DNA from: Candidatus Zhuqueibacterota bacterium
Lineage (GTDB): Bacteria; Zhuqueibacterota; Zhuqueibacteria; Thermofontimicrobiales; Thermofontimicrobiaceae
Reading direction: 5' to 3'
Length of the DNA: 64,000 nt
Assembly: GCA_049322915.1 (NCBI GenBank)
Contig: JBMOPW010000045.1
Span: 116,203 to 180,202, forward strand
Position 1 is the stretch's first letter; every line of letters starts with the position of its first letter. The position numbers were made by a program, and so were the translations under genes. The notes beneath the pieces were generated by a model. The model searched no databases and was not told the origin of the DNA. It was given only the letters and a program-made list of their open reading frames with translations. Below are positions 7,534 through 64,000 of the stretch, piece after piece.

Positions 7534-7602
7534 GATAATATTTCAGCTCTCTGAAAATAATTGTAACTGATTCGTCATTTAAAGTATCCAAAGATTGCCG
7601 AC

Positions 7603-7690
7603 CGATCGTTCGGGATATTCATCCCAAACATTGCGGCTGTTCCGGGACATACGTCGCAGGCATTACACTTGCTGGATGTGTGTCCAGCAA
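7603..7690 (-). repeat. Dispersed ~90-bp three-hairpin element, copy 1
   Basis: Reverse complement reads TTGCTGGA-CACACA-TCCAGCAA...GACGTATGTCCCGGAAC...GTTTGGGATGAATATCCCGAACGATCG and aligns with 39424-39510 and 63911-64000. Confidence 0.85.
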
Positions 7691-7777
7691 GGGCAGGAAA
7701 TAGTATTTCAGTACTTCATTCCCCCAAAAAAAAATTTCAAACAATTGAAACAAATTCAATTTTACATCGTTTCATCG

Positions 7778-33924: not shown

Positions 33925-33953
33925 TTGACTTTATTGAATTGCTCGTTTATATT
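33925..33953 (+). promoter_or_regulatory. Sigma70 promoter of the CHAT-STAND-TPR gene
   Basis: TTGACT-17 nt-TATATT about 80 bp upstream of ATG 34032. Confidence 0.6.
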
Positions 33954-34031
33954 GTGACCAATTCTCATTTCACTTTGCCCGTAACCCACCTTAAAATCTG
34001 TCAAAGCTCAATCCAGGGAGGCGATCCAGCC

Positions 34032-37000
34032 ATGTCGCTATTTCTTGATATCCTCATGGAACTTGTACCTGAAATGCTGTTCCGCGCGATCAAAGACTAC
34101 ATCGACATCCGCAAAGGGGAGTTGAAAGATTCTGCCTTTGAAAAATTTTACCGAACCTTAGTCGTTTCGTTCATCGACACGCAAAAGGGATTGGACCAGG
34201 GGCAGGCAAAGAAATTTTTCGCCAGCGATGCCGCGCTCGATGGCGTGCTGGCGTATCTCTATCGCTTCACCGATCCTGATGCGGCGATTCGTGACAAATG
34301 CCAGCAGGCACTGTGTAGTCTGGCAGATCGATATAAAATCTCAGGCGACGCGAAATTTCCGACTGAAAAATTGGTGCAACGCTTTTTAGTTGATCTCGAA
34401 ACCGAGCTGCGCCACGATGTCAATAAATCGCTGCTGCCCTTTTTCACTGATCTTCGGGATGACCATGCCAGAATCGTGCAGAAGCTGGATAGCCTGACCG
34501 AACAGATCGAAGCGGATCGCCAGGCGCGTGAGCAACGCGCCACCCAGATCGATGCCAGCGGCGAAAAAGTGACGGTTCATGGGCAATTGATTTACGATTC
34601 CAGGGAAAAGCCTGAGCCACAACTACCCCTGCCCGTCATTCATTGCACGCTTGAAGCCATCGATAAAGACAATGACCGCTATCGCTCCGTTATTACCAAC
34701 GATAAAGGCAAGGAACTCCACAAACACAATTTCACGCTCAAACGCGACGATGTCTTTCTGCTCAATGCCAATCACTGGCTGGAACATGATGGTTTGCAGG
34801 ATTATCGCAGCCAGATCAAAATTGATTCGAACAGGACGTTTACCCAGCGCGTGGGGAATCATTATTTTGAACTGATTATGGGCGGAAATGGGACGCTGAA
34901 GAAACATCTCAACACCAATGGTGAATTGGAACGTGGCTTTCAATTTATGTTGGAACTCGATCCCGAAGCTGAATTGCTGTGGCAGGCGCCGTGGGAATTT
35001 CTGCACGATAGCGAGGAGTTTTTGGGACTGTCGGGCAAAGTGCACCTGGTGCGGACGCCTCTCGGCGCGGGCGCGCTGGCGGTCAAGCCCATTCCCCAGC
35101 CGCTGAGAATTCTGGTCGTGATCTCCAATCCTGCGGATAAGGGCGAGTTCGATGGTGAGCGGGCGCTGTCATCGATTCAGGAAGCCGTGGATTACGCGCG
35201 GCGCAATGGCTGGGTCGAGCTGGAATATCTGGAGGATGCCACATTTCTCAATTTTCAGCAGCGACTGGCAGCGTTTCAGCCGCATGTCGTGCATTACATC
35301 GGTCATGGCGGCAGGAATCCCGACGATAAAAAATCGATCAAATCCCCTTATTCAGGCATGCCTGGCGAAACCTACCTCGCGTTTGAAAATGAGAACGGCG
35401 ATCTCGATCCCCTCTATGGCAAGCATCTGCAACAATTGTTGGCAAACGCATCATCGGTGCAACTGCTGGTGTTATCGGGCTGCATGACGGGACAGACGGC
35501 TGCCACCGATGCGCTGGCTGGCGTGGGAACTGCCTTGCTCAGGGAACAACTTCCCGCGCTGGTGGTGATGCAGTATTCGGTGCTGGTGGATACCGCCATC
35601 CAATTTGCCAAAATATTTTACGAGCGAATCAGTAGCGGCAAGCGGCTGAGCCAGGCGCTGACCGAAGTGCGCCAGGTTTTGGCAAAGGGACGTGAACATC
35701 GGGCCGACTGGGGCATTCCTGCGCTGTATCTTCGTTCGGCAGAACTGCAGCTCATCGATCCCAGGGCGAAAAAGCGGGAACCCGAAATCACGGTCGAGCG
35801 CACCGCCATCGGCGATCTGCCCGTAGTGGCAGGATTTGTGGGAAGAGTGAAAGAACTGCGGCGCTTGCGGGAGACCGTGAAACATCCCCAGCAGCCTGTG
35901 ATCTACATCTGGGGACTGGGCGGCATCGGCAAGACCAGCCTCACGGCCAAGCTCATCGAAAAGCTGGAACAGGAACACGCTATTGACGCAAGGCGGGTGA
36001 TTCGCTGCAACGAAATCGAGCCGACCTTTGCTGCAATAGCTCAAAAGGTTGGCGATTTCATTAAATTGCAAGGGATGGCAGGACATGCCGAGGCAGGCAT
36101 CATGCTGCAGGATAGCCGCTACGATATCGAGACCAGGGTTTCCCTGCTCAACCAGGTCATCAAAGATCGGCGCTGCCTGTTCGTGTTCGATAATTTCGAA
36201 TCCCTGTTCAGCGAAAAAATCCCGCAGGTGGGACGGCTGAACGATCCCGAGCTGGAAACGTTTTTCCAGACGCTGTTCAGCCATAACTGGCGCAGCACCT
36301 TTTTGTTCACCTGCCGCTACCAGTGGAATCTGTTGCTGGAAGAGCCAGGCATGCACCGCTACGCCTGCGGCTTGCCCCGCGCCAATGCGCTGGTGCTGCA
36401 GTTGCAGGGACTCTCGCCTGCGCAGACCCGCATGTTGATGAAGAACCTGCCCGCGCTGGGCAAACTGACGTTCATTGAACAGACCCAGGTGCTGCCGCTG
36501 GTGTTGGGACATCCCCATACCGTGCATCTTTTTGACGCCTATCTTGGTCAATATGGATTAAAATCAGTGTTGCAGGATGATGAAATTACCCGCCGTAGAG
36601 ACGTTACATGTAACGTCTCTACACCAACCGAAATTATCCAAAATTTGGGCGCCTATTTCCTCGATGGTCTCTGGGCAAAATTGAACGAACAGGAACGGGA
36701 TATCCTGGGCCTGTTGTCCGTGTTCCGCACCAGCCTGGCCGAGGACGGCTTGCGGCAACTGGCGCCCGATTTAGCCGCGCTGACGACGCTGCGCAACTAC
36801 TCCCTGGTGCAACGCATGACCAGCGATACAGAGACCCGCCCTGACTACGGCGTGCACCCTGTGGTGCGCGGCTATGTGGATCGCAAATTCAGCGCGGAGC
36901 AGATGAAAGCATATCACATGGCTGCGGTGGATTTTTATGTGGCGCAACAGGCAGCCAGATTTCCAAAATCAGATAAGATTGATCAATGGACGCCCGCACT

Positions 37001-37997
37001 ATTAGCCCAGATAGCCGAACTCGCCGCTCAACAGGGCAATACCCCGCTGGCGCTGAGCCTGACCGAGGGCTTGCTGGAAATGCACCATCATCTGTTTGCG
37101 GCTGGGGAGTATGAACAGGCTGGCGCTTTGGTAACAGATTTTTATGATTTTCTTGCAATGATTGGTCGCCGTGAAGTCGCTAAAAATCTGCTGCGCCAGA
37201 GCATTGCTTCACGAGAAGGATTCAACAAATACGTCGCCATGGGCAACCTGGCGACGCTGCTGAAAAACGAAGGCAAATGGCAGGAGGCGCTGGCGACGCA
37301 TCAGGAATGTATTGACTATTTCGATAAAGAAGATGCAAAACAGCAAATGGCTCAGGTTTTAAGCCAGCAGGCGCAAATCTACCAGGAACGCGGCGAGTAT
37401 GAGCAGGCGCTGGAGCTGGAGCGGAAGGCGATTGAAATTAAGGAAGAAATAAAAGATGAAACTGTCGTTATTCAATACTACCGCATTGCGCAACTGCTGG
37501 ATAGAATGGAACGCTACGACGAGGCGCTGACCGCAGGCGAAACCGCGCTGGCAAAAGTCCGCCAGATCAGCAATGCCCAATTGGAAGCCGCCTGCCTGCA
37601 CCAGCTCGGCATGACGCTGAACAAGCTCAACCGACCGCAGCAGGCGTTTGAGCGATTTCAGGAGAGTTTACAAATCACAGAAAGACTCGGCGACCGCGCA
37701 GGGCAGGCGGATACGCTGGGAGAGATGGGAAAATTATTATTGAATACTGGACAATTTGATGCGGCTATTCATCTATTTCAAAAGGCAATTGAGATTTATT
37801 TCGAGCAAAACAATCCTGTCAAAGCTGCCATTGTTTTGGAAGCAATTGGATTCACTTTCGAACAACAAGGTCATTTTCAGGAAGCCCTGGAAAAGTATCA
37901 GGAGGCACTGCGGTTGTTTAAGCAATATAGCCATGCAGGAGATGTGGCTGGTACAGAAAGAAATATTGCACGGGTTAAAGCGAAACTGGGGCGGTAG
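34032..37997 (+). CDS. CHAT (caspase-like) domain + STAND/NB-ARC-like NTPase + TPR repeat protein
   Basis: APWEFL, LRILVVISNP, HYIGHGG and LVLSGC (His/Cys dyad), W-GIPALY; Walker A GLGGIGKTS; Walker B LFVFDNFE; winged-helix YGVHPVVR; multiple C-terminal TPRs. Start set to ATG 34032 (GGAGG RBS). Confidence 0.9.
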   Translation: MSLFLDILMELVPEMLFRAIKDYIDIRKGELKDSAFEKFYRTLVVSFIDTQKGLDQGQAKKFFASDAALDGVLAYLYRFTDPDAAIRDKCQQALCSLADRYKISGDAKFPTEKLVQRFLVDLETELRHDVNKSLLPFFTDLRDDHARIVQKLDSLTEQIEADRQAREQRATQIDASGEKVTVHGQLIYDSREKPEPQLPLPVIHCTLEAIDKDNDRYRSVITNDKGKELHKHNFTLKRDDVFLLNANHWLEHDGLQDYRSQIKIDSNRTFTQRVGNHYFELIMGGNGTLKKHLNTNGELERGFQFMLELDPEAELLWQAPWEFLHDSEEFLGLSGKVHLVRTPLGAGALAVKPIPQPLRILVVISNPADKGEFDGERALSSIQEAVDYARRNGWVELEYLEDATFLNFQQRLAAFQPHVVHYIGHGGRNPDDKKSIKSPYSGMPGETYLAFENENGDLDPLYGKHLQQLLANASSVQLLVLSGCMTGQTAATDALAGVGTALLREQLPALVVMQYSVLVDTAIQFAKIFYERISSGKRLSQALTEVRQVLAKGREHRADWGIPALYLRSAELQLIDPRAKKREPEITVERTAIGDLPVVAGFVGRVKELRRLRETVKHPQQPVIYIWGLGGIGKTSLTAKLIEKLEQEHAIDARRVIRCNEIEPTFAAIAQKVGDFIKLQGMAGHAEAGIMLQDSRYDIETRVSLLNQVIKDRRCLFVFDNFESLFSEKIPQVGRLNDPELETFFQTLFSHNWRSTFLFTCRYQWNLLLEEPGMHRYACGLPRANALVLQLQGLSPAQTRMLMKNLPALGKLTFIEQTQVLPLVLGHPHTVHLFDAYLGQYGLKSVLQDDEITRRRDVTCNVSTPTEIIQNLGAYFLDGLWAKLNEQERDILGLLSVFRTSLAEDGLRQLAPDLAALTTLRNYSLVQRMTSDTETRPDYGVHPVVRGYVDRKFSAEQMKAYHMAAVDFYVAQQAARFPKSDKIDQWTPALLAQIAELAAQQGNTPLALSLTEGLLEMHHHLFAAGEYEQAGALVTDFYDFLAMIGRREVAKNLLRQSIASREGFNKYVAMGNLATLLKNEGKWQEALATHQECIDYFDKEDAKQQMAQVLSQQAQIYQERGEYEQALELERKAIEIKEEIKDETVVIQYYRIAQLLDRMERYDEALTAGETALAKVRQISNAQLEAACLHQLGMTLNKLNRPQQAFERFQESLQITERLGDRAGQADTLGEMGKLLLNTGQFDAAIHLFQKAIEIYFEQNNPVKAAIVLEAIGFTFEQQGHFQEALEKYQEALRLFKQYSHAGDVAGTERNIARVKAKLGR
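36595..36622. repeat. Perfect 28-bp GTAG-type palindrome inside the coding sequence
   Basis: GTAGAGACGTTACATGTAACGTCTCTAC equals its own reverse complement; it reads (R)RDVTCNVST in frame. Confidence 0.92.
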
Positions 37998-38020: not shown

Positions 38021-38040
38021 GTTTGTTGCAGGAGTCATTT

Positions 38041-38880
38041 TCGTCCCAAAGGGACGACTGATAATAGCCCATCCCGATTGATCGGGATGGGATCAAAAAG
38101 GATAAAGGTATTTTCAAAGTCCCGTCAGGGACGAATGAATAACAATGCAACAAAACATCCCACGTTGCGGAATTATGTTTCGACAAAATTCATTCGTCCC
38201 TACGGGACTTGGGCTTGGGCGTGGTCTTTCATCTCTTTTCCCAAGAATAAATTCTTGGGCTATTGTCAAATGTCCCTGTTGGACAAAATGAAAACAACCC
38301 ATTGATGTGTCAACGGGATTTGTTCGTCCCAAAGGGACGGAATGAAAATAGCCCATCCCGATTGATCGGGATGGGATCAAAAAGGATAAAGGTATTTTCA
38401 AAGTCCCGCCAGGGACGAATGAATAACAATGCAACAAAACATCCCACGTTGCGGAATTATGTTTCGCCAAAATTCATTCGTCCCTACGGGACTTGGGCTT
38501 GGTCTTTCATCTCTTTTCCCAAGAATGAATTCTTGGGCTATTGTCAATTGTCCCTGCGGGACAAAATGAAAACAACCCATTGATGTGTCAACGGGATTTG
38601 TTCGTCCCGAAGGGACGGAATGAAAATAGCCCATCCCGATTGATCGGGATGGGATCAAAAAGGATAAAGGTATTTTCAAAGTCCCGCCAGGGACGAATGA
38701 AATAATGATATGATGAAAATGATTGATTCGTGATGATGCCGCCAAAATTCATTCGTCCCTACGGGACTTGGGCGTGGTCTTTCATCTCTTTTCCCAAGAA
38801 TAAATTCTTGGGCTATGGTCAATCGTCCCTTTGGGATGGAATGAAAATAGCCCATCCCGATTGATCGGGATGGGATCGAA
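38041..38880. repeat. Array of alternating inverted three-hairpin elements (REP/REPIN/BIME-like), about 3.3 tandem units
   Basis: Unit starts TCGTCCC at 38041, 38324, 38602 and 38823. Hairpin CCCATCCCGAT-TG-ATCGGGATGGG at 38068, 38352, 38630 and 38851. Hairpin CCCAAGAAT-nn-ATTCTTGGG occurs three times. Many GTCCC-N3/4-GGGAC mini-hairpins. Confidence 0.95.
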
Positions 38881-38940
38881 AAGAATGAAAACAATAACCA
38901 TCGAAAAATTATTCATATAAAAAATAGGAAGGAAAATAAC

Positions 38941-39393
38941 ATGGCACATTCCTATGTGAGCATATTAATCCATTACATCTTCAGCACCAAACATCGGGAA
39001 AAAAATATCTCTCCTGAAATTCAAGATCGCGTTTGGGCATACATGGGCGGGATTGCACGGGAAAACAATATGAAAGCATTATCCATCGGCGGCGTCGAAG
39101 AACACGCACATGTTTTGTTATCGTTACCGGCGACAATTTCTATTTCCAAAGGCGTGCAACTCATCAAAGGCGGTTCGTCCAAATGGATTCATGATACGTT
39201 TCCGACACTTAATGAATTTGTTTGGCAAGTTGGATATGGCGCTTTCAGCGTGAGTATTTCTCATGTTGATGAAACGATCAACTATATTGAAAATCAAAGA
39301 GAGCATCATCGACACAAAACTTTTCAGGAAGAATATTTGGCGTTTTTGAAGAAGCACGCTTTTGAATATGATGAAAACTATATCTGGGGATAA
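38941..39393 (+). CDS. tnpA: HUH/Y1 tyrosine transposase (IS200/IS605 TnpA-like, probably REP-associated RAYT-type)
   Basis: 150 aa; HYIFSTKHR, HUH motif EEHAHV, KGGSSKW, WQVGYGAFSVS and catalytic YIENQ; no tnpB follows. Confidence 0.93.
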   Translation: MAHSYVSILIHYIFSTKHREKNISPEIQDRVWAYMGGIARENNMKALSIGGVEEHAHVLLSLPATISISKGVQLIKGGSSKWIHDTFPTLNEFVWQVGYGAFSVSISHVDETINYIENQREHHRHKTFQEEYLAFLKKHAFEYDENYIWG

Positions 39394-39423
39394 CGTGCAA
39401 TTGACTCAACCTGACTCCCTGAT

Positions 39424-39510
39424 CGCTGGAACTACATTCAGCGCGGGCAATAGCTGGGACGTATGTCCCCGAATCGGCGCACCGTTCGGGATGAATATCC
39501 CAAACGATCG
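39424..39510 (+). repeat. Dispersed ~90-bp three-hairpin element, copy 2
   Basis: CGCTGGA-ACTACA-TTCAGCG...GGGAC-GTAT-GTCCC...CGTTCGGGATGAATATCCCAAACGATCG, 30 bp after the Y1 gene stop. Confidence 0.85.
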
Positions 39511-39543
39511 AGAGGCCGCTGGCAGAGGCGTGTTCCACGGATG

Positions 39544-39609: not shown

Positions 39610-42600
39610 CTATCGCATTAAAATCAGTTTCCGACTCTGGACGTAAGTCCGTGGGAGCAGCGCTGCACTGTTCTCCCGGCGTGATAAAACCGGCGAGTGA
39701 TCCGTTGCCTCCAGCCGATAAAGATATATCCCACTGGAAATTCCCCGGGCATCCCAGTTACAACGATGAATTCCTGCTGTCAGGCGTTCAGTTATCAGGG
39801 ATGTCACCTCTTCGCCCATCATGTTGTAAATTGTAAGCGTGACAAAACACGGTCTCGGAAGAGCAAATTCGATGGTCGTGCTCGGGTTGAACGGATTGGG
39901 ATAGTTTTGATTCAGCGAAAACGACTCAGGAATGGGATTCATCGCCGGCTGTTCCACCTCAGTCAGGACAGCTTTGGAGAAAGGCGAGGTGCTACCCTCA
40001 GCGTTAATTGCAATGGCCGTCACATTGGAAAAAGGCCCATGAATGGAACCGTTCCAGATGAAATTGCCGGCCGGATCGGACATGGTTTCGCCCTGGAAAA
40101 TTTCACCCTCGTCCTCAGAGTCCGTGTAGATTTCGATCATGGCGTCAGCGATGGCTGTGCCTGAGACGGAAGAACCAGTGACCGACGTGATGGTCGGCGC
40201 GCTGATCACATTGGCCCCGCCTGAATCGTAGAGTATGCCGGATTGTTGATTGTGAGCGATGCTGTTATGGCTGATCCGGTTGCGGAGCGGCTCTGCGCCA
40301 TAGATACGCACCCCGGCGCCGCGATTGAACCAGATGAAATTGTTCCGGATGCAGTTATCGTACGATTCATCCGCGATGAACACGCCGTCGAATTCATTGC
40401 CCGTGAGTGGATCGATGAATTCCGGCGCCATGCCGATCCAGTTATTCTGGATGCTACTGCGGCAGGACTCTAAAATGTAAATGCCATATCTATTTCCACC
40501 GATCCGGTTATCGAACACCGCCACGCTGTCGCATTGATTTTGAATACAGATGCCGCCATAATTACCGTTGGGAATGGGCGCATCCCCCAACCGATTGAGT
40601 CCGACGATGTTGCCCAGGATGTTCACGTGATGCGAAGAATCCGAGACAAATATCCCGCCGTTGGTATTCCCGGAAATGACATTGCGGAACGTATCCATCG
40701 GCGCGATGACCACAAACTGGCTGTGATTCCCAATCCACACGCCATAGCCATTGGGCGCCGGGCTGAAACCATTGAAATCGGCCCCGATGTAGCAGCCGCG
40801 CAGGTGGCCGCCATCGACATTGTCCATGCTGACGCCGGTGCTGTAGAAATTATTGATGGTCAATCCATGAATGAAAACCATCGAACCTGTCACATTCAGG
40901 CCGGAGACGTATTGCCCTGCGTTGCTGCCGCTTATAACTATCTCCGGGCCGTGAGGATTGCAGTCCCTGCCAATAAATGCTGCCTGTGAAAAACCATTCA
41001 GAAACAAGTCATTATCTGAGATGGTTGGTAATTGACTGAGCGGAGAGATGATCCAGACACCGACATCCGCATCGTGGCCGGGGACGCCCTCGGGAATGGC
41101 GAATAAAATTGTGTCAGGGCCGATAGAGGAGTTGGCGCTGTTGATTGCGTCGCGCAATGATCCGGGGCCGGCGTCCATGCAATTGGTAACGAGCAGACTG
41201 CCTGTCGTGGGACCGCTTAAAGGATACATGATGGCGAATGTTGAGAGATGATCGGTTTCGCCCCGAATGACATTGACATCGGTATACAGATGGGTTGTGA
41301 TTTCAGCCCATTGCCCGCTGGGTTCATCGAATCGCATCAGTTTCAGGGTTGTTTCGTGATCGCCCAGACCGGCGTCGCTGTAAGTGATCTCCATGCTAAT
41401 CACACCGGAATAAGTGGCCGTTGTGCTGATGAGATAATAACCGGGATTGCCTTCCGGGATCACCACGTGATATGCCGGGGGAATTGGGCCAATGGGTTCA
41501 ATGGCGGCGTCGGTATTGCCCGGATTGATCACCTGAGCGAACATCAATTGAATCGCGCTGGTGACATCAACGATGACATTGACGCCGGCCGGCGTGTTGG
41601 TCGGCGATGTGGAAGAAATTGTGAACACAGCGTCGCTGATATCGAAGGGCTGCCCATCCGTGGCGTCCGAGACTTTGACGCAGCAATTGCTGGACGGGGT
41701 ATTCGGCACAGTCCATTGGTACGACGGCGAACCGGAGTAGGAACCGGCAATGGTCGAATATGTGGCCCCGCCATTGGTCGAGTACTCAATCTTCACCGCT
41801 CCACTGAACAGATGGGTATTCCAGACAATGTAACGCGGAGAACCCACATTCCAATTTTCACCGCCGTTGGGCACATCGAGTTTGATGTACGGATTGGAGG
41901 TAATTTCAAATGAGGCGTTGCTGACGTCGGAAATCACACTCGCCTGCAAGACGGAAAGGCGCACGAGGCAATTGGTGGACGGCTCATCCGGCAATGTCCA
42001 GGTATAAGAGCCGGCCGTGCCGTGATTGGTCTGATAGGTAACGAAGGAATAATTCGCTCCGCCATCGGTCGAGTACTCGATTTTCACATCGTAATTATCG
42101 ATCCCCTGTCCTGTCCAGGTGATGGCCTGAGGCGTGTCCGCTTCCCATTGTTCGCCGCCGTTCGGGTTGGTGACAGTGATACTCGATGTCGATGTTCCGC
42201 CCTGTCCGACAACTTCATCGATACCGACCTGTCCATCGATCAGGCCGGTCATGGCGCCCATGATTTGAATCGTGATCTCTTTCATCGTGTAGTTGGTGGG
42301 AAAAATGGAACTCGACGACCAGTCGAATGTCAGCGTGTTCCACACAGCGTTGGAGTTAAACCAGGAGCTGTATGTCAGTGGTTGATTTAAAAGCTGGTCA
42401 TTGTAAAACGTGCGGTCCTTTGCCAGATCATTGTCATACACCGTAACGATGAGGTTGGCGTACAGGGTGGAGCTGACCGTCATATTTTCGGTGAGCCTGA
42501 CCGATATGCTGGTTACGCTCTGCCAGTCGGTTTCGCCCGATAAATCCGGCGAACTGAACTTCATGATCCAGTAGGTTCCGGAGGAACCAGTAATGCCGTG

Positions 42601-42846
42601 TCCGCCGCTGGTGAAAAAGAGCAATGAACCATTGCCCGACCCGGTTGTGGGATAGTTGACCAGACTGGTCCATGACAATGTGAAATTCGATGAGTACGGA
42701 CCATTACCGCTTTCATCGTATGCCCCCTGCATGGTCCAGCCCTGTTTGGTGCCATCGTTGAAGTCAAATTCTTGCGCACCTGACTGGACTGCCAGCCCCA
42801 TTCCCATTGCCAAAATGAGAATGAGTTTTAAATGATTCATTTTCAT
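39610..42846 (-). CDS. Secreted multidomain protein: Ig-like modules, parallel beta-helix repeats, T9SS-like C-terminal domain
   Basis: Signal peptide from ATG 42846 (GAGGTGA RBS); two PNGGExW Ig-like modules; DAGPGSLRDAINSAN; NVISGN / N-I-GN beta-helix repeats; SLNQNYPNPFNPSTTIEF. Confidence 0.86.
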   Translation of the reverse strand: MKMNHLKLILILAMGMGLAVQSGAQEFDFNDGTKQGWTMQGAYDESGNGPYSSNFTLSWTSLVNYPTTGSGNGSLLFFTSGGHGITGSSGTYWIMKFSSPDLSGETDWQSVTSISVRLTENMTVSSTLYANLIVTVYDNDLAKDRTFYNDQLLNQPLTYSSWFNSNAVWNTLTFDWSSSSIFPTNYTMKEITIQIMGAMTGLIDGQVGIDEVVGQGGTSTSSITVTNPNGGEQWEADTPQAITWTGQGIDNYDVKIEYSTDGGANYSFVTYQTNHGTAGSYTWTLPDEPSTNCLVRLSVLQASVISDVSNASFEITSNPYIKLDVPNGGENWNVGSPRYIVWNTHLFSGAVKIEYSTNGGATYSTIAGSYSGSPSYQWTVPNTPSSNCCVKVSDATDGQPFDISDAVFTISSTSPTNTPAGVNVIVDVTSAIQLMFAQVINPGNTDAAIEPIGPIPPAYHVVIPEGNPGYYLISTTATYSGVISMEITYSDAGLGDHETTLKLMRFDEPSGQWAEITTHLYTDVNVIRGETDHLSTFAIMYPLSGPTTGSLLVTNCMDAGPGSLRDAINSANSSIGPDTILFAIPEGVPGHDADVGVWIISPLSQLPTISDNDLFLNGFSQAAFIGRDCNPHGPEIVISGSNAGQYVSGLNVTGSMVFIHGLTINNFYSTGVSMDNVDGGHLRGCYIGADFNGFSPAPNGYGVWIGNHSQFVVIAPMDTFRNVISGNTNGGIFVSDSSHHVNILGNIVGLNRLGDAPIPNGNYGGICIQNQCDSVAVFDNRIGGNRYGIYILESCRSSIQNNWIGMAPEFIDPLTGNEFDGVFIADESYDNCIRNNFIWFNRGAGVRIYGAEPLRNRISHNSIAHNQQSGILYDSGGANVISAPTITSVTGSSVSGTAIADAMIEIYTDSEDEGEIFQGETMSDPAGNFIWNGSIHGPFSNVTAIAINAEGSTSPFSKAVLTEVEQPAMNPIPESFSLNQNYPNPFNPSTTIEFALPRPCFVTLTIYNMMGEEVTSLITERLTAGIHRCNWDARGISSGIYLYRLEATDHSPVLSRRENSAALLPRTYVQSRKLILMR

Positions 42847-43333
42847 AGCATCACCTCGTATTGTTGAACATGATTTCGATTGATTTGTCAATCATCGGTT
42901 TTTCTACTATTCCATTTTTACTAATTTCTGAAAAATCAACCCGCTCCAATTCCATGGATTGAAGCATTGCTCATCCATTCATTGTCGAAAGGTGTGTCTG
43001 AGGTCCCGGCGATGTGCGCCGATCGAATCCTTTCCCAACGCCCGGATCAGGAGGACGCGCCGTCGTTGCTTTTTTTGTGCTGCGCCGTTGTTTGGGACAG
43101 GGATTCACAGCACACGCGAATTTCCCCTGATGGCAGAAGGATATGATGAAGCATTTTCATGTTGATCCATTCCTTGAGAATCGTTTCATTCAGCCCGGTG
43201 AGACGCGCCGCGCATGGCATGGTGATCATGTTGCTGCACTGGCAGATAAATTGAAATTTACTTGTTCAGGTCAGGGCTCGCCGAAATGTCTGGCTGAGAC
43301 GATTGCCGATTTTGGCCAGCATCAGGATAATTC

Positions 43334-63860: not shown

Positions 63861-63910
63861 CGGCGCTGCCATGCCGGGGGAGATTGCTGTACTACCTAAC
63901 AATTTATGAT

Positions 63911-64000
63911 CGCGCTGGATATTAATCCGGCGCGGGGGATGGATTGGAGCGTATGTTCCCGAATAGATGCGTCGTTCGGGATGAATATCCCGAACGATCG
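63911..64000 (+). repeat. Dispersed ~90-bp three-hairpin element, copy 3 (reaches the window edge)
   Basis: CGCGCTGGAT-ATTA-ATCCGGCGCG...GGAGC-GTAT-GTTCC...CGTTCGGGATGAATATCCCGAACGATCG. Confidence 0.85.

Follow-up and report, generated by a model that had tools for sequence, protein, structure and literature searches.

What is a solitary Y1/HUH nuclease gene doing behind several hundred base pairs of alternately inverted hairpin repeats? The question is raised by a 64,000-nt stretch of DNA from Candidatus Zhuqueibacterota bacterium (GenBank assembly GCA_049322915.1, contig JBMOPW010000045.1, positions 116,203 to 180,202), the whole of which we call the window. Here one repeated scaffold takes up the ~850 bp between the stop codon of a gene encoding a CHAT/NTPase/TPR protein and the start of a Y1_Tnp gene. 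Our answer, which we consider probable, is that the locus holds a pair resembling a REPtron, the association of a REP-associated tyrosine transposase (RAYT, or TnpA-REP) with repetitive extragenic palindromes (REPs). The pair would consist of a Y1/HUH nuclease of IS200-like descent, which has probably been domesticated, and a cognate REP-like element that acts as single-stranded DNA (ssDNA). In this system the repeat is most likely the DNA partner of the enzyme and not an RNA gene.

An alternating array upstream of a Y1 nuclease gene

Seven copies of one ~95-nt three-hairpin element fill positions 38042-38890, with type A on the forward strand and type B on the reverse strand in strict alternation. 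A preliminary description of this DNA, made from the sequence alone, had already recognized the alternating array; placements by our covariance model of the element (R1) fall 1-2 nt from the coordinates given there, apart from the 3' end of A4, which moves from 38880 to 38890 in R1. The features are listed below with their R1 scores and, where given, scores against the Rfam family RF01687 (Acido-Lenti-1).

38042..38140, + strand: element A1; R1 60.7 bits; RF01687 28.3 bits on the - strand; 11-bp central hairpin
38141..38187: inner spacer of doublet 1; 97.9% identical to the doublet 2 spacer at 38425-38471
38188..38285, - strand: element B1; R1 70.8 bits; RF01687 23.1 bits on the + strand; 9-bp central stem, imperfect first hairpin
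38286..38324: spacer between doublets; identical copy at 38564-38602; contains a small hairpin
38325..38424, + strand: element A2; R1 58.2 bits; 96% identity to A1; ssDNA fold z -7.1
38472..38563, - strand: element B2; R1 84.3 bits; RF01687 40.6 bits at 38518-38563 on the + strand
38603..38702, + strand: element A3; R1 60.3 bits; 98% identity to A2
38703..38746: inner spacer of doublet 3; unrelated to the others, 42% identity to the doublet 2 spacer
38747..38838, - strand: element B3; R1 76.0 bits; RF01687 32.2 bits; first hairpin common to A4
38824..38890, + strand: element A4, truncated and gene-proximal; R1 28.6 bits; keeps the first and central hairpins, lacks the third hairpin and tail
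38941..39393, + strand: Y1/HUH nuclease gene, intact, 150 aa; Pfam Y1_Tnp (PF01797) 89.2 bits against a cut-off of 23

Read 5' to 3', the unit comprises a 5-bp hairpin (hp1, GTCCC/GGGAC), a linker ending in ATAG, the central hairpin, a second linker of 26-35 nt, a third hairpin (hp3, again GTCCC/GGGAC) and the tail GAATGAA. The central stem has 11 bp in A and 9 bp in B, of unlike sequence, and identity reaches 94-98% among A copies and 87-91% among B copies against 59% between A and B, in agreement with the earlier view that the two types are one scaffold with different central stems. ATAG at the 5' foot of the central hairpin, likewise claimed then for most copies, is present in every copy in the window.

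Tandem Repeats Finder reports a single array from 38040 to 38855 (score 1290), with 2.9 copies of a 278-nt period and 91% matches, and a repeat search of the window returns direct repeat families at 278-284 nt spacing together with perfect 14-nt inverted arms shared by the 3' ends of A and B. Spacer lengths along the array run 47/39/47/39/44 nt. Three diagnostic patterns occur 3, 4 and 3 times in the 64-kb window, always inside the array, where shuffles expect 0.02, 0 and 0, the last of the patterns also matching its own palindrome at 3 mismatches. The array is made of three convergent A/B doublets followed by the truncated A4, and two of the doublets derive from a recent tandem duplication; the number of units rests on the assembly, since short-read Logan contigs of the best-matching DNA run stop at 38092 and resume at 38848. 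Two REP types, alternating orientation and regular spacing are what characterizes a cluster of bacterial interspersed mosaic elements (BIMEs), and the analogy with BIMEs drawn in the preliminary description fits.

Folding of single elements as ssDNA is far more favourable than that of their shuffles (z -7.1 and -5.0). For an A/B doublet the folding energy is -61.3 kcal/mol (z -8.9); here A and B pair with each other through their hp3 and tail segments, and hp1 and the central hairpin of each fold locally. A4 ends 50 nt before the ATG of the Y1 gene, a purine-rich run resembling a ribosome-binding site lies 8 nt before that ATG, and the R1 scan found no copy of the element 3' of the gene in the window.

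Open reading frames (ORFs) of 54-118 aa across the array are by-products of the repeats. On the reverse strand the central hairpins of the A copies, together with a T-rich run, resemble intrinsic terminators (38352-38375, 38630-38653 and 38851-38874, in addition to spacer hairpins); terminator-like sites on this strand of the array number 8 against 2.3 expected, and the array could stop leftward transcription.

The element beside relatives of the gene

We sampled 80 loci encoding relatives of the nuclease at 38-65% protein identity, from Planctomycetota, Acidobacteriota, Verrucomicrobiota, Lentisphaerae, Electrothrix, Brocadia, Balneolaceae and others. When the loci were scanned, without regard to position, for a hairpin preceded by TAG, the same three-hairpin architecture was recovered beside most of these genes, with a total length of mostly 88-93 nt. 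In an alignment of 94 elements, 94.3% of cells are paired and 16 of 18 pairs have changed on both sides, a result reached by none of 500 shuffles and set against 38-51% paired in slid controls; the R1 seed was chosen for hairpins, and from the very loci in which hits were then counted, which weakens the case; the percentage paired is in part circular for the first of these reasons, and the variety of stems seen at fixed positions is free of this circularity.

The R1 model built from the aligned elements yields 221 hits at E<=0.01 in the 452 kb of loci, and at least one in 79 of the 80. Within 250 nt of the gene hit density is 4.34/kb, compared with 0.13/kb elsewhere in the same loci (33-fold). 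The model is specific: of 31 related genomes (2-8 Mb), 18 give no hit at E<=1e-6. Among the 76 loci with at least 200 nt available on both sides, 53 have a forward copy no more than 200 nt upstream and a reverse copy no more than 200 nt downstream; the median gap between element and coding region is 22 nt upstream and 19 nt downstream. The normal unit is therefore the gene between two elements that face each other, their hp3 tails directed inward. At four loci (L016, L024, L049, L050) each side of the gene bears a doublet or more, like the window array. The preliminary description had emphasized that the repeats lie on one side only. This stands for the window, where there is no 3' copy, and falls for the family; upstream-only copies are an oddity of the window locus and not of the system. 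A check proposed there, whether homologs are flanked by the same scaffold with covarying stems, is answered in the affirmative by the 79 loci and 16 covarying pairs above.

Small-hairpin sequence follows the protein phylogeny. When hp3 stem types (GTCCC, GTCGC, GTCCG, GCCCC and others) are placed on a maximum-likelihood tree of 46 proteins, 8 changes account for 8 types, against a mean of 16.7 in shuffles, none of 200 of which is as low. The GTCGC type forms one clade (support 80/79) that joins Planctomycetota, Acidobacteriota and Pseudomonadota, and sequences from Pyrinomonadaceae fall into three clades with three hp3 stem types. Such a match shows that element and gene are inherited and transferred together, and is in keeping with specific recognition. 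Among the unpaired bases of the element, the most conserved are TAG-CC at the foot and a G after hp3 (145 of 149 elements), then R-N-T/A-G-A.

The preliminary description missed RF01687, under which the element is already listed as an RNA. This family matches the central hairpin plus hp1 of A1-A3 and B1-B3, and not A4, on the strand opposite to the orientation used in that description. Only B2 reaches the gathering score (40.6 vs 37 bits), the other matched copies scoring 21.3-32.2 bits; the central hairpin and hp1 of B2 are the sole stretch of the window above any Rfam gathering score, and the whole genome contains 2 RF01687 matches at or above it. Acido-Lenti-1 was rated a probable RNA, from Acidobacteria and Lentisphaerae, by Weinberg 2010 (PMC2864571). 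Two preprints of 2026 still call its function unknown, and a Tannerella preprint of that year guesses that it regulates nearby protease genes. The Rfam model, 46 nt long, joins an 8-bp hairpin to one of 5 bp through a 12-nt linker that starts with CUA; its reverse complement corresponds to hp1, NTAG and the central hairpin. The model differs in that it spans half of the element and is filed as a small RNA (sRNA) gene on the other strand, whereas the element is a Y1-linked three-hairpin DNA repeat.

The orientation of folding can be read from wobble pairs. An anchor-based scan that treats G.T and A.C alike finds 16 G.T against 2 A.C in central stems, and the model alignment of 149 distinct elements gives 25 against 9 over all three helices (binomial p 0.009, uncorrected for relatedness). 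This excess identifies the folding strand as the one with NTAG 5' of the central hairpin, which is the orientation of the preliminary description and not that of Rfam. An NTAG foot occurs in 146 of the 149 elements (ATAG 107, GTAG 26, CTAG 8, TTAG 5), where the central hairpin mostly has a 9-bp stem and a TT/TC loop. GTAG-tagged REPs are described as having stems of 6-9 bp and TY loops, with families also in bacteria of the Planctomycetes-Verrucomicrobia-Chlamydiae (PVC) group (Di Nocera 2013, PMC3733652). By these features the central hairpin itself appears to be a classical REP of the GTAG-tagged type, and the element a REP with two accessory hairpins. The proposal that a larger element stands here in place of a classical REP has accordingly to be given up.

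The nuclease, its class and its residence

In addition to its Pfam match, the window protein scores 63.8 bits against 55 for the NCBIfam family transpos_IS200. Its motifs are H55-A-H57, W95-Q96, Y115-IEN-Q119-RE-H122-H123 and a conserved C-terminal tail. Alignments of 75 and 33 relatives show conservation of the HUH histidine pair, SSKW, WQ-GYG, Y-I-x-N-Q-x-E-H-H and the ~30-aa C-terminal tail, and the window protein retains 23 of 23 invariant columns. H55/H57, Y115 and Q119 are invariant in the 33 relatives, as are F128 and E131 in the tail, with L136 and D144 nearly so; the HUH motif reads EHAH here against DHVH in the family consensus. Clustered at 50% identity, the family has 255 representatives at E<=1e-30 and 4533 at E<=1e-10.

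Searched against the PDB, the family profile matches IS200/IS605 TnpA chains only (1e-15 to 1e-11), and E. coli TnpA-REP (4er8) gives no match in this profile search even at E<=10. An AlphaFold model (pLDDT 90.2) has IS200/IS605 TnpA chains as its top 29 fold matches, led by hairpin-DNA-bound TnpA of ISDra2 and then of IS608 (E ~1e-8, best 9e-9; 22-25% identity), with 4er8 in 30th place (E 1e-4, 13% identity). Sequence and predicted fold thus place the protein nearer to IS200/IS605 TnpA than to the E. coli RAYT. The protein falls outside the RAYT clade, and in this respect the RAYT-like system inferred in the preliminary description finds no backing: the motif is YIENQ (Y---Q--HH) and not Y---NP, and 4er8 goes unmatched by sequence and ranks low by fold.

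Among the literature that we found, Quentin 2018 alone, judged by title, treats TnpAY1 subclass 1.2, which is characterized there by Y---Q--HH and WQ motifs, a median length of 148 aa and 1.7 copies per genome at 36% identity, and is reported without REP and without IS200-type ends (PMC6006769). The protein fits this subclass by the published motifs: it shares the length of ~148-150 aa, WQ, a tyrosine motif of the YIxNQxEHH type, the ~30-aa C-terminal tail, low copy number and low identity between copies. The subclass as published differs in its entry 'REP: no' and in its hosts, mostly Cyanobacteria and Bacteroidetes (PMC6006769), from the family described here, which occurs in PVC phyla, Acidobacteriota and others and has flanking hairpins; 'no REP' is a descriptive feature of the sample in Quentin 2018 and not a criterion of the clade. 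Other placements were rejected. Class 2 RAYTs (Y---NP) are set apart by the motif YIENQ and by the absence of sequence kinship with 4er8, class 3 of Quentin 2018 (Planctomycetes and Acidobacteria, Y----Q, foot CnGA; PMC6006769) by both motif and foot, and the tyrosine transposase linked to terminal inverted repeats (TIRYT) of Koribacter by its assignment in the same paper to subclasses 2.1, 2.2 and 2.5 (PMC6006769).

Among the best 150 representative relatives there are 18 of 272-315 aa with two matched Y1 stretches (P0003, P0006, P0025, P0097 and 14 others). Two Pfam Y1_Tnp stretches are present in each of the four fusions checked, and HxH and Y---Q stand in both halves of the two sequences inspected. 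These two-domain fusions may be single-chain dimers, a hint that the active form is dimeric; dimers are described for IS200/IS605 TnpA, unlike E. coli TnpA-REP, which is described as a monomer.

Comparison with known systems brings out a mixture of features. The REPtrons of E. coli, Pseudomonas and Stenotrophomonas, in which RAYT/TnpA-REP is accompanied by REPs, BIMEs and REP doublets forming hairpins (REPINs), are described as single-copy HUH Y1 genes bracketed by inverted hairpins with a 5'-xTAG foot, the E. coli REPtron having three inverted REP pairs, and as being associated with alternating two-type clusters, such as the Y and Z REPs of BIMEs, and with dispersed gene-less inverted doublets (PMC2817692, PMC3479197, PMC6006769). 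The first two have likenesses here, where the single-copy gene flanked by inverted 5'-footed hairpins is found in the family at large and the window copies lie upstream only. Gene-less inverted doublets are dispersed in other genomes of the family, with from 13 to at least 88 copies of the element; the 13 copies of this genome are all in doublets or tandem doublets. Unlike REPtrons, the present system has a class 1 protein (Y---Q--HH and not Y---NP), a foot that is mostly ATAG (107 of 149, GTAG 26), elements of ~90 nt with two extra small hairpins, and copies in the tens and not the hundreds. The IS200/IS605 TnpA proteins of IS608 and ISDra2 are the closest solved relatives (profile E 1e-15, fold E 9e-9), share the HUH, Tyr and Gln residues, and bind ssDNA hairpins with a short guide at the 5' foot; unlike in those insertion sequences, there are here no multiple identical gene copies, no tnpB, inverted flanking structures in place of same-strand subterminal hairpins, and an extra C-terminal domain. 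The third comparison is with the GTAG REPs and TIRYT genes of Di Nocera 2013 (PMC3733652). The central hairpin fits the description of GTAG REPs in that paper, and in its TIRtrons, too, a Y1 gene stands between long inverted repeats that are in part self-complementary and make up small dispersed families. TIRYT proteins are, by Quentin 2018 (PMC6006769), of subclasses 2.1, 2.2 and 2.5 and not 1.2, and neither a three-hairpin composite nor a link to RF01687 figures in the account of TIRtrons (PMC3733652). The passages on Acido-Lenti-1 that we found in the literature mention no transposase partner, and no paper was found that states a link between element and Y1 gene (bioRxiv supplements were not covered). 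New here is a probable REPtron-like system on a class 1 Y1 enzyme, with a composite REP.

The gene does not look like part of an active insertion sequence (IS). The Y1 genes of this genome are three full copies, at 35-41% identity, and besides these one weak match; in five other genomes a single ortholog is accompanied by paralogs of 20-46% identity, and no near-identical Y1 gene copies occur in any genome examined. No tnpB-like ORF lies between 35000 and 42500. Twelve locus pairs, each drawn from two different species, have genes in common on either flank and in the same orientation; the lineages include Pirellulales, Blastocatellia, Pyrinomonadaceae, Brocadia and Phycisphaerales. To judge from these comparisons the gene behaves as a resident and not as an IS. 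The preliminary description was right to say that this is not an ordinary IS200, and the check that it proposed, whether the gene is single-copy and syntenic across strains, returned a single-copy gene and, in the twelve pairs, shared flanks even between species.

A genome of the same genus (G006) has no ortholog, its best match being 37% identical. The closest orthologs, at 71% and 69% identity, belong to another family of the same order and to another order of the same class, and both carry flanking elements. Of the paralogs in this genome, that on contig C14 is immediately preceded by an RF01687-like element (33.2 bits) and, as judged by eye, followed by an inverted one, and that on C28 has a weak R1 match downstream (23.8 bits). 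In the window the neighbours are a 1352-aa CHAT protease/NTPase/TPR protein at 33939-37997 (+) and a 1093-aa beta-helix protein with a sorting tail of the type IX secretion system (T9SS) at 39610-42891 (-); these flanking genes are not adjacent in G006, where matches are confined to the common C-terminal sorting domain and repeats.

Directly 3' of the Y1 gene, where orthologs have the inverted element, comes a dispersed repeat of another kind, ~95 nt long and unrelated to the first (39418-39512, +); it stands again at ~7590-7710 (-) and 63892-64000 (+, cut at the window end). In this genome blastn finds it 58 times at E<=1e-3 (71-100% identity), spread over 21 contigs; it is absent near the other Y1 paralogs of the genome, and also occurs on several contigs of the same-genus genome. 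The 36 copies aligned show a short outer stem and three internal hairpins; no Rfam match above chance was found for this repeat, and RNAalifold gave no usable consensus. Read depth over it is ~1235 vs 68 in the best-matching DNA run.

Weighing the proposed partnership

Outside the window array, this genome has the element at two further loci, one doublet on contig C21 and two tandem doublets on contig C30 with a 386-bp period. The latter (C30:64770-65384, L009) stand just after a gene with a T9SS-type C-terminus, and the repeated unit seems to carry a copy of the last codons of that gene, which indicates local duplication and not insertion. Local tandem duplication, not dispersal, multiplies elements in this genome. 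At the counterpart of the C21 locus in G006 part of one arm is kept beside a different upstream gene; no clean empty site was found for the C30 locus. Five other genomes contain at least 88, 66, 27, 13 and 19 copies, lower bounds from scoring 150 candidates per genome, and most are convergent doublets with 0-20-nt gaps. In one of the genomes (G001) the doublets fall into several subfamilies; hp1 forms their outer limit, and neither terminal repeats nor duplicated flanks could be seen.

Several results count against the partnership of enzyme and element. The element is rare in this genome, with 13 R1 copies at the three loci. In genome G004 (that of locus L045; L110-L129), ~23 near-identical doublets are the core of a 268-271-bp transposable element of the miniature inverted-repeat kind (MITE) with 24-bp terminal inverted repeats, flanked by an 8-bp AT-rich duplication in 19 of 20 copies, 15 of them perfect. 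This is the signature of a DDE-type MITE and not of HUH Y1 chemistry, so the high copy number in that genome says nothing about Y1 activity. (An autonomous IS behind this MITE was considered and rejected: no long element with the MITE ends was found in that assembly, where 47 terminal-repeat matches pair into ~23 short units plus one 142-bp unit and a solo end.) Nor does gene presence go with element presence at the grain of 30 relatives, scored for a Y1 match at E<=1e-20 and elements at E<=1e-6:

Y1 and elements: 5 genomes
Y1 without elements: 8 genomes
elements without Y1: 7 genomes
neither: 10 genomes

The same-genus genome has 3 elements and no ortholog, and G033, which is 99% complete, has 17 elements and a best Y1_Tnp match of 32.9 bits. 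Agreement of hp3 type with the protein tree is no proof of recognition, since the elements counted are physically linked to the gene. The gene-proximal copies of the two closest orthologs lack the central hairpin and keep hp1, ATAG, hp3 and the tail, which implies that the small hairpins may matter at least as much as the REP-like core. The cognate partnership as a whole is read from sequence: the analysis shows how the element is built, that it is linked to the gene, that its stems covary, which strand the wobble pairs favour and where the protein belongs, and from this we infer binding, cleavage, a dependence on ssDNA and any mobility. On the genome counts it should be added that 6 of the 7 element-only genomes are 56-85% complete, that paralogs with hairpins of their own, which R1 may miss, are counted together in the Y1 search, and that REPs outlive their RAYT in E. 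coli according to Di Nocera 2013 (PMC3733652). In G033, eight elements cluster around a 168-aa non-Y1 ORF (L158, G033:C59:3300-7300).

Close inverted ends on both sides of the gene, and gene-less convergent doublets that resemble internal deletions, are what one would see if element, Y1 gene and opposing element were, now or recently, an autonomous mobile unit, of which the window is a decayed copy without its right end and the doublets are MITE-like deletion derivatives. The patchy distribution (no same-genus ortholog, nearest orthologs 71% and 69% identical) and protein clades of a single element type that cross phyla would also suit such a unit. So would the grouping of the window protein with sequences from Planctomycetota, although the window encodes a T9SS-type sorting domain, which we take to point to a different host, of the Fibrobacterota-Chlorobiota-Bacteroidota (FCB) type; transfer is only suggested by this. 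We nevertheless think a mobile unit unlikely, given gene copies that are never near-identical (paralogs 20-46% in five genomes, 35-41% in this one), the twelve different-species pairs syntenic on both flanks, and the architecture of known Y1 insertion sequences, whose hairpins are described as subterminal and on the same strand and not as inverted ends (Quentin 2018, PMC6006769). The G004 amplification, achieved through a MITE with its 8-bp duplication, invites another reading, in which the elements are REP-like DNA, either selfish or useful to the host (as terminators, insulators, or hot spots of recombination or insertion), that spread by other means, and the Y1 gene is linked to them, having for example inserted into such repeats or come under their control, without processing them. 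Elements that have no close Y1 gene, including the cluster around a non-Y1 ORF in G033, the lack of association among the 30 relatives and the excess of terminator-like sites on the opposite strand all agree with it. We rate it as quite unlikely, because it leaves unexplained both the 33-fold enrichment, fixed inward orientation and ~20-nt spacing in dozens of species across phyla and the way in which, inside a single host family, small-hairpin type goes with protein clade.

If the elements acted as RNA, whether as the Acido-Lenti-1 sRNA or as a structured 5' leader controlling Y1 translation, the array would be a multi-copy RNA gene; the preliminary description had allowed for a structured transcript. 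One copy does exceed the RF01687 gathering score, the motif was rated a probable RNA (Weinberg 2010, PMC2864571), G.T (in RNA, G.U) pairs are tolerated, and the upstream copy, ending at a median of 22 nt from the start codon, would fall within the mRNA leader. However, the copies bracket the gene in opposite orientations and doublets hold both, which one direction of transcription could not accommodate; the excess of G.T over A.C points to the strand that the Rfam model does not use; and a scan of the array with the sigma-70 consensus only found no promoter-like site. An RNA function is in our estimation very unlikely.

Under the REPtron-like partnership that we prefer, the element of ~90-100 nt folds on the 5'-NTAG strand into a central REP-type hairpin with an (A/G)TAG foot, having on each flank a small 5-bp hairpin and then a conserved G-R-N-T-G-A-A tail. 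For IS608/ISDra2 TnpA and E. coli TnpA-REP it is described that the hairpin is bound and bases 5' of the foot select the cut. By analogy the enzyme, probably as a dimer, would bind folded NTAG-strand elements when the DNA is single-stranded, as at replication forks, and would cut and rejoin near them, leading to upkeep, inversion, duplication or movement of doublets. The gene-less convergent doublets scattered around the chromosomes of other genomes count in favour of this reading. In the window the upstream side would have been expanded by tandem duplication of an A/B doublet and the downstream copy lost. Candidate guide or cut bases are the TAG-CC foot, the G after hp3 and the R-N-T/A-G-A that follows. 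The E. coli rule for the cut site, in which AG of the foot pairs with CT, was dropped: of the 149 elements only 59 have CT as the third and fourth bases of the tail, where the window has AT.

A more specific proposal, for and against which we see about equal weight, is that Acido-Lenti-1 is no RNA gene and instead makes up one half of an ssDNA element, ~90 nt long and with three hairpins, which would be the missing substrate of a dimeric, IS200-derived TnpAY1 of subclass 1.2, domesticated across many phyla. The partnership would be of the REP/RAYT type and of independent, class 1 origin; the small hairpins and G-R-N-T-G-A-A tails would be the binding or cleavage modules of the enzyme, and the NTAG-footed hairpin an exchangeable core, which would explain why the stems of the A and B arms are free to differ.

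For annotators, the immediate consequence is that an 'Acido-Lenti-1 non-coding RNA' near a gene, read as a regulator of neighbouring genes in the Tannerella preprint, should not be taken for a regulatory RNA without evidence. An enzyme of 150 aa and an element of 90 nt make a compact system for studying how hairpin-guided ssDNA enzymes become tamed, with natural variants to exploit: two arms (A and B), at least five types of small hairpin, and the two-domain fusions. If the partnership is real, a widespread clade of Y1 enzymes that has been reported without a DNA partner gains one, and partnerships of the REP type arose more than once in the HUH Y1 superfamily.

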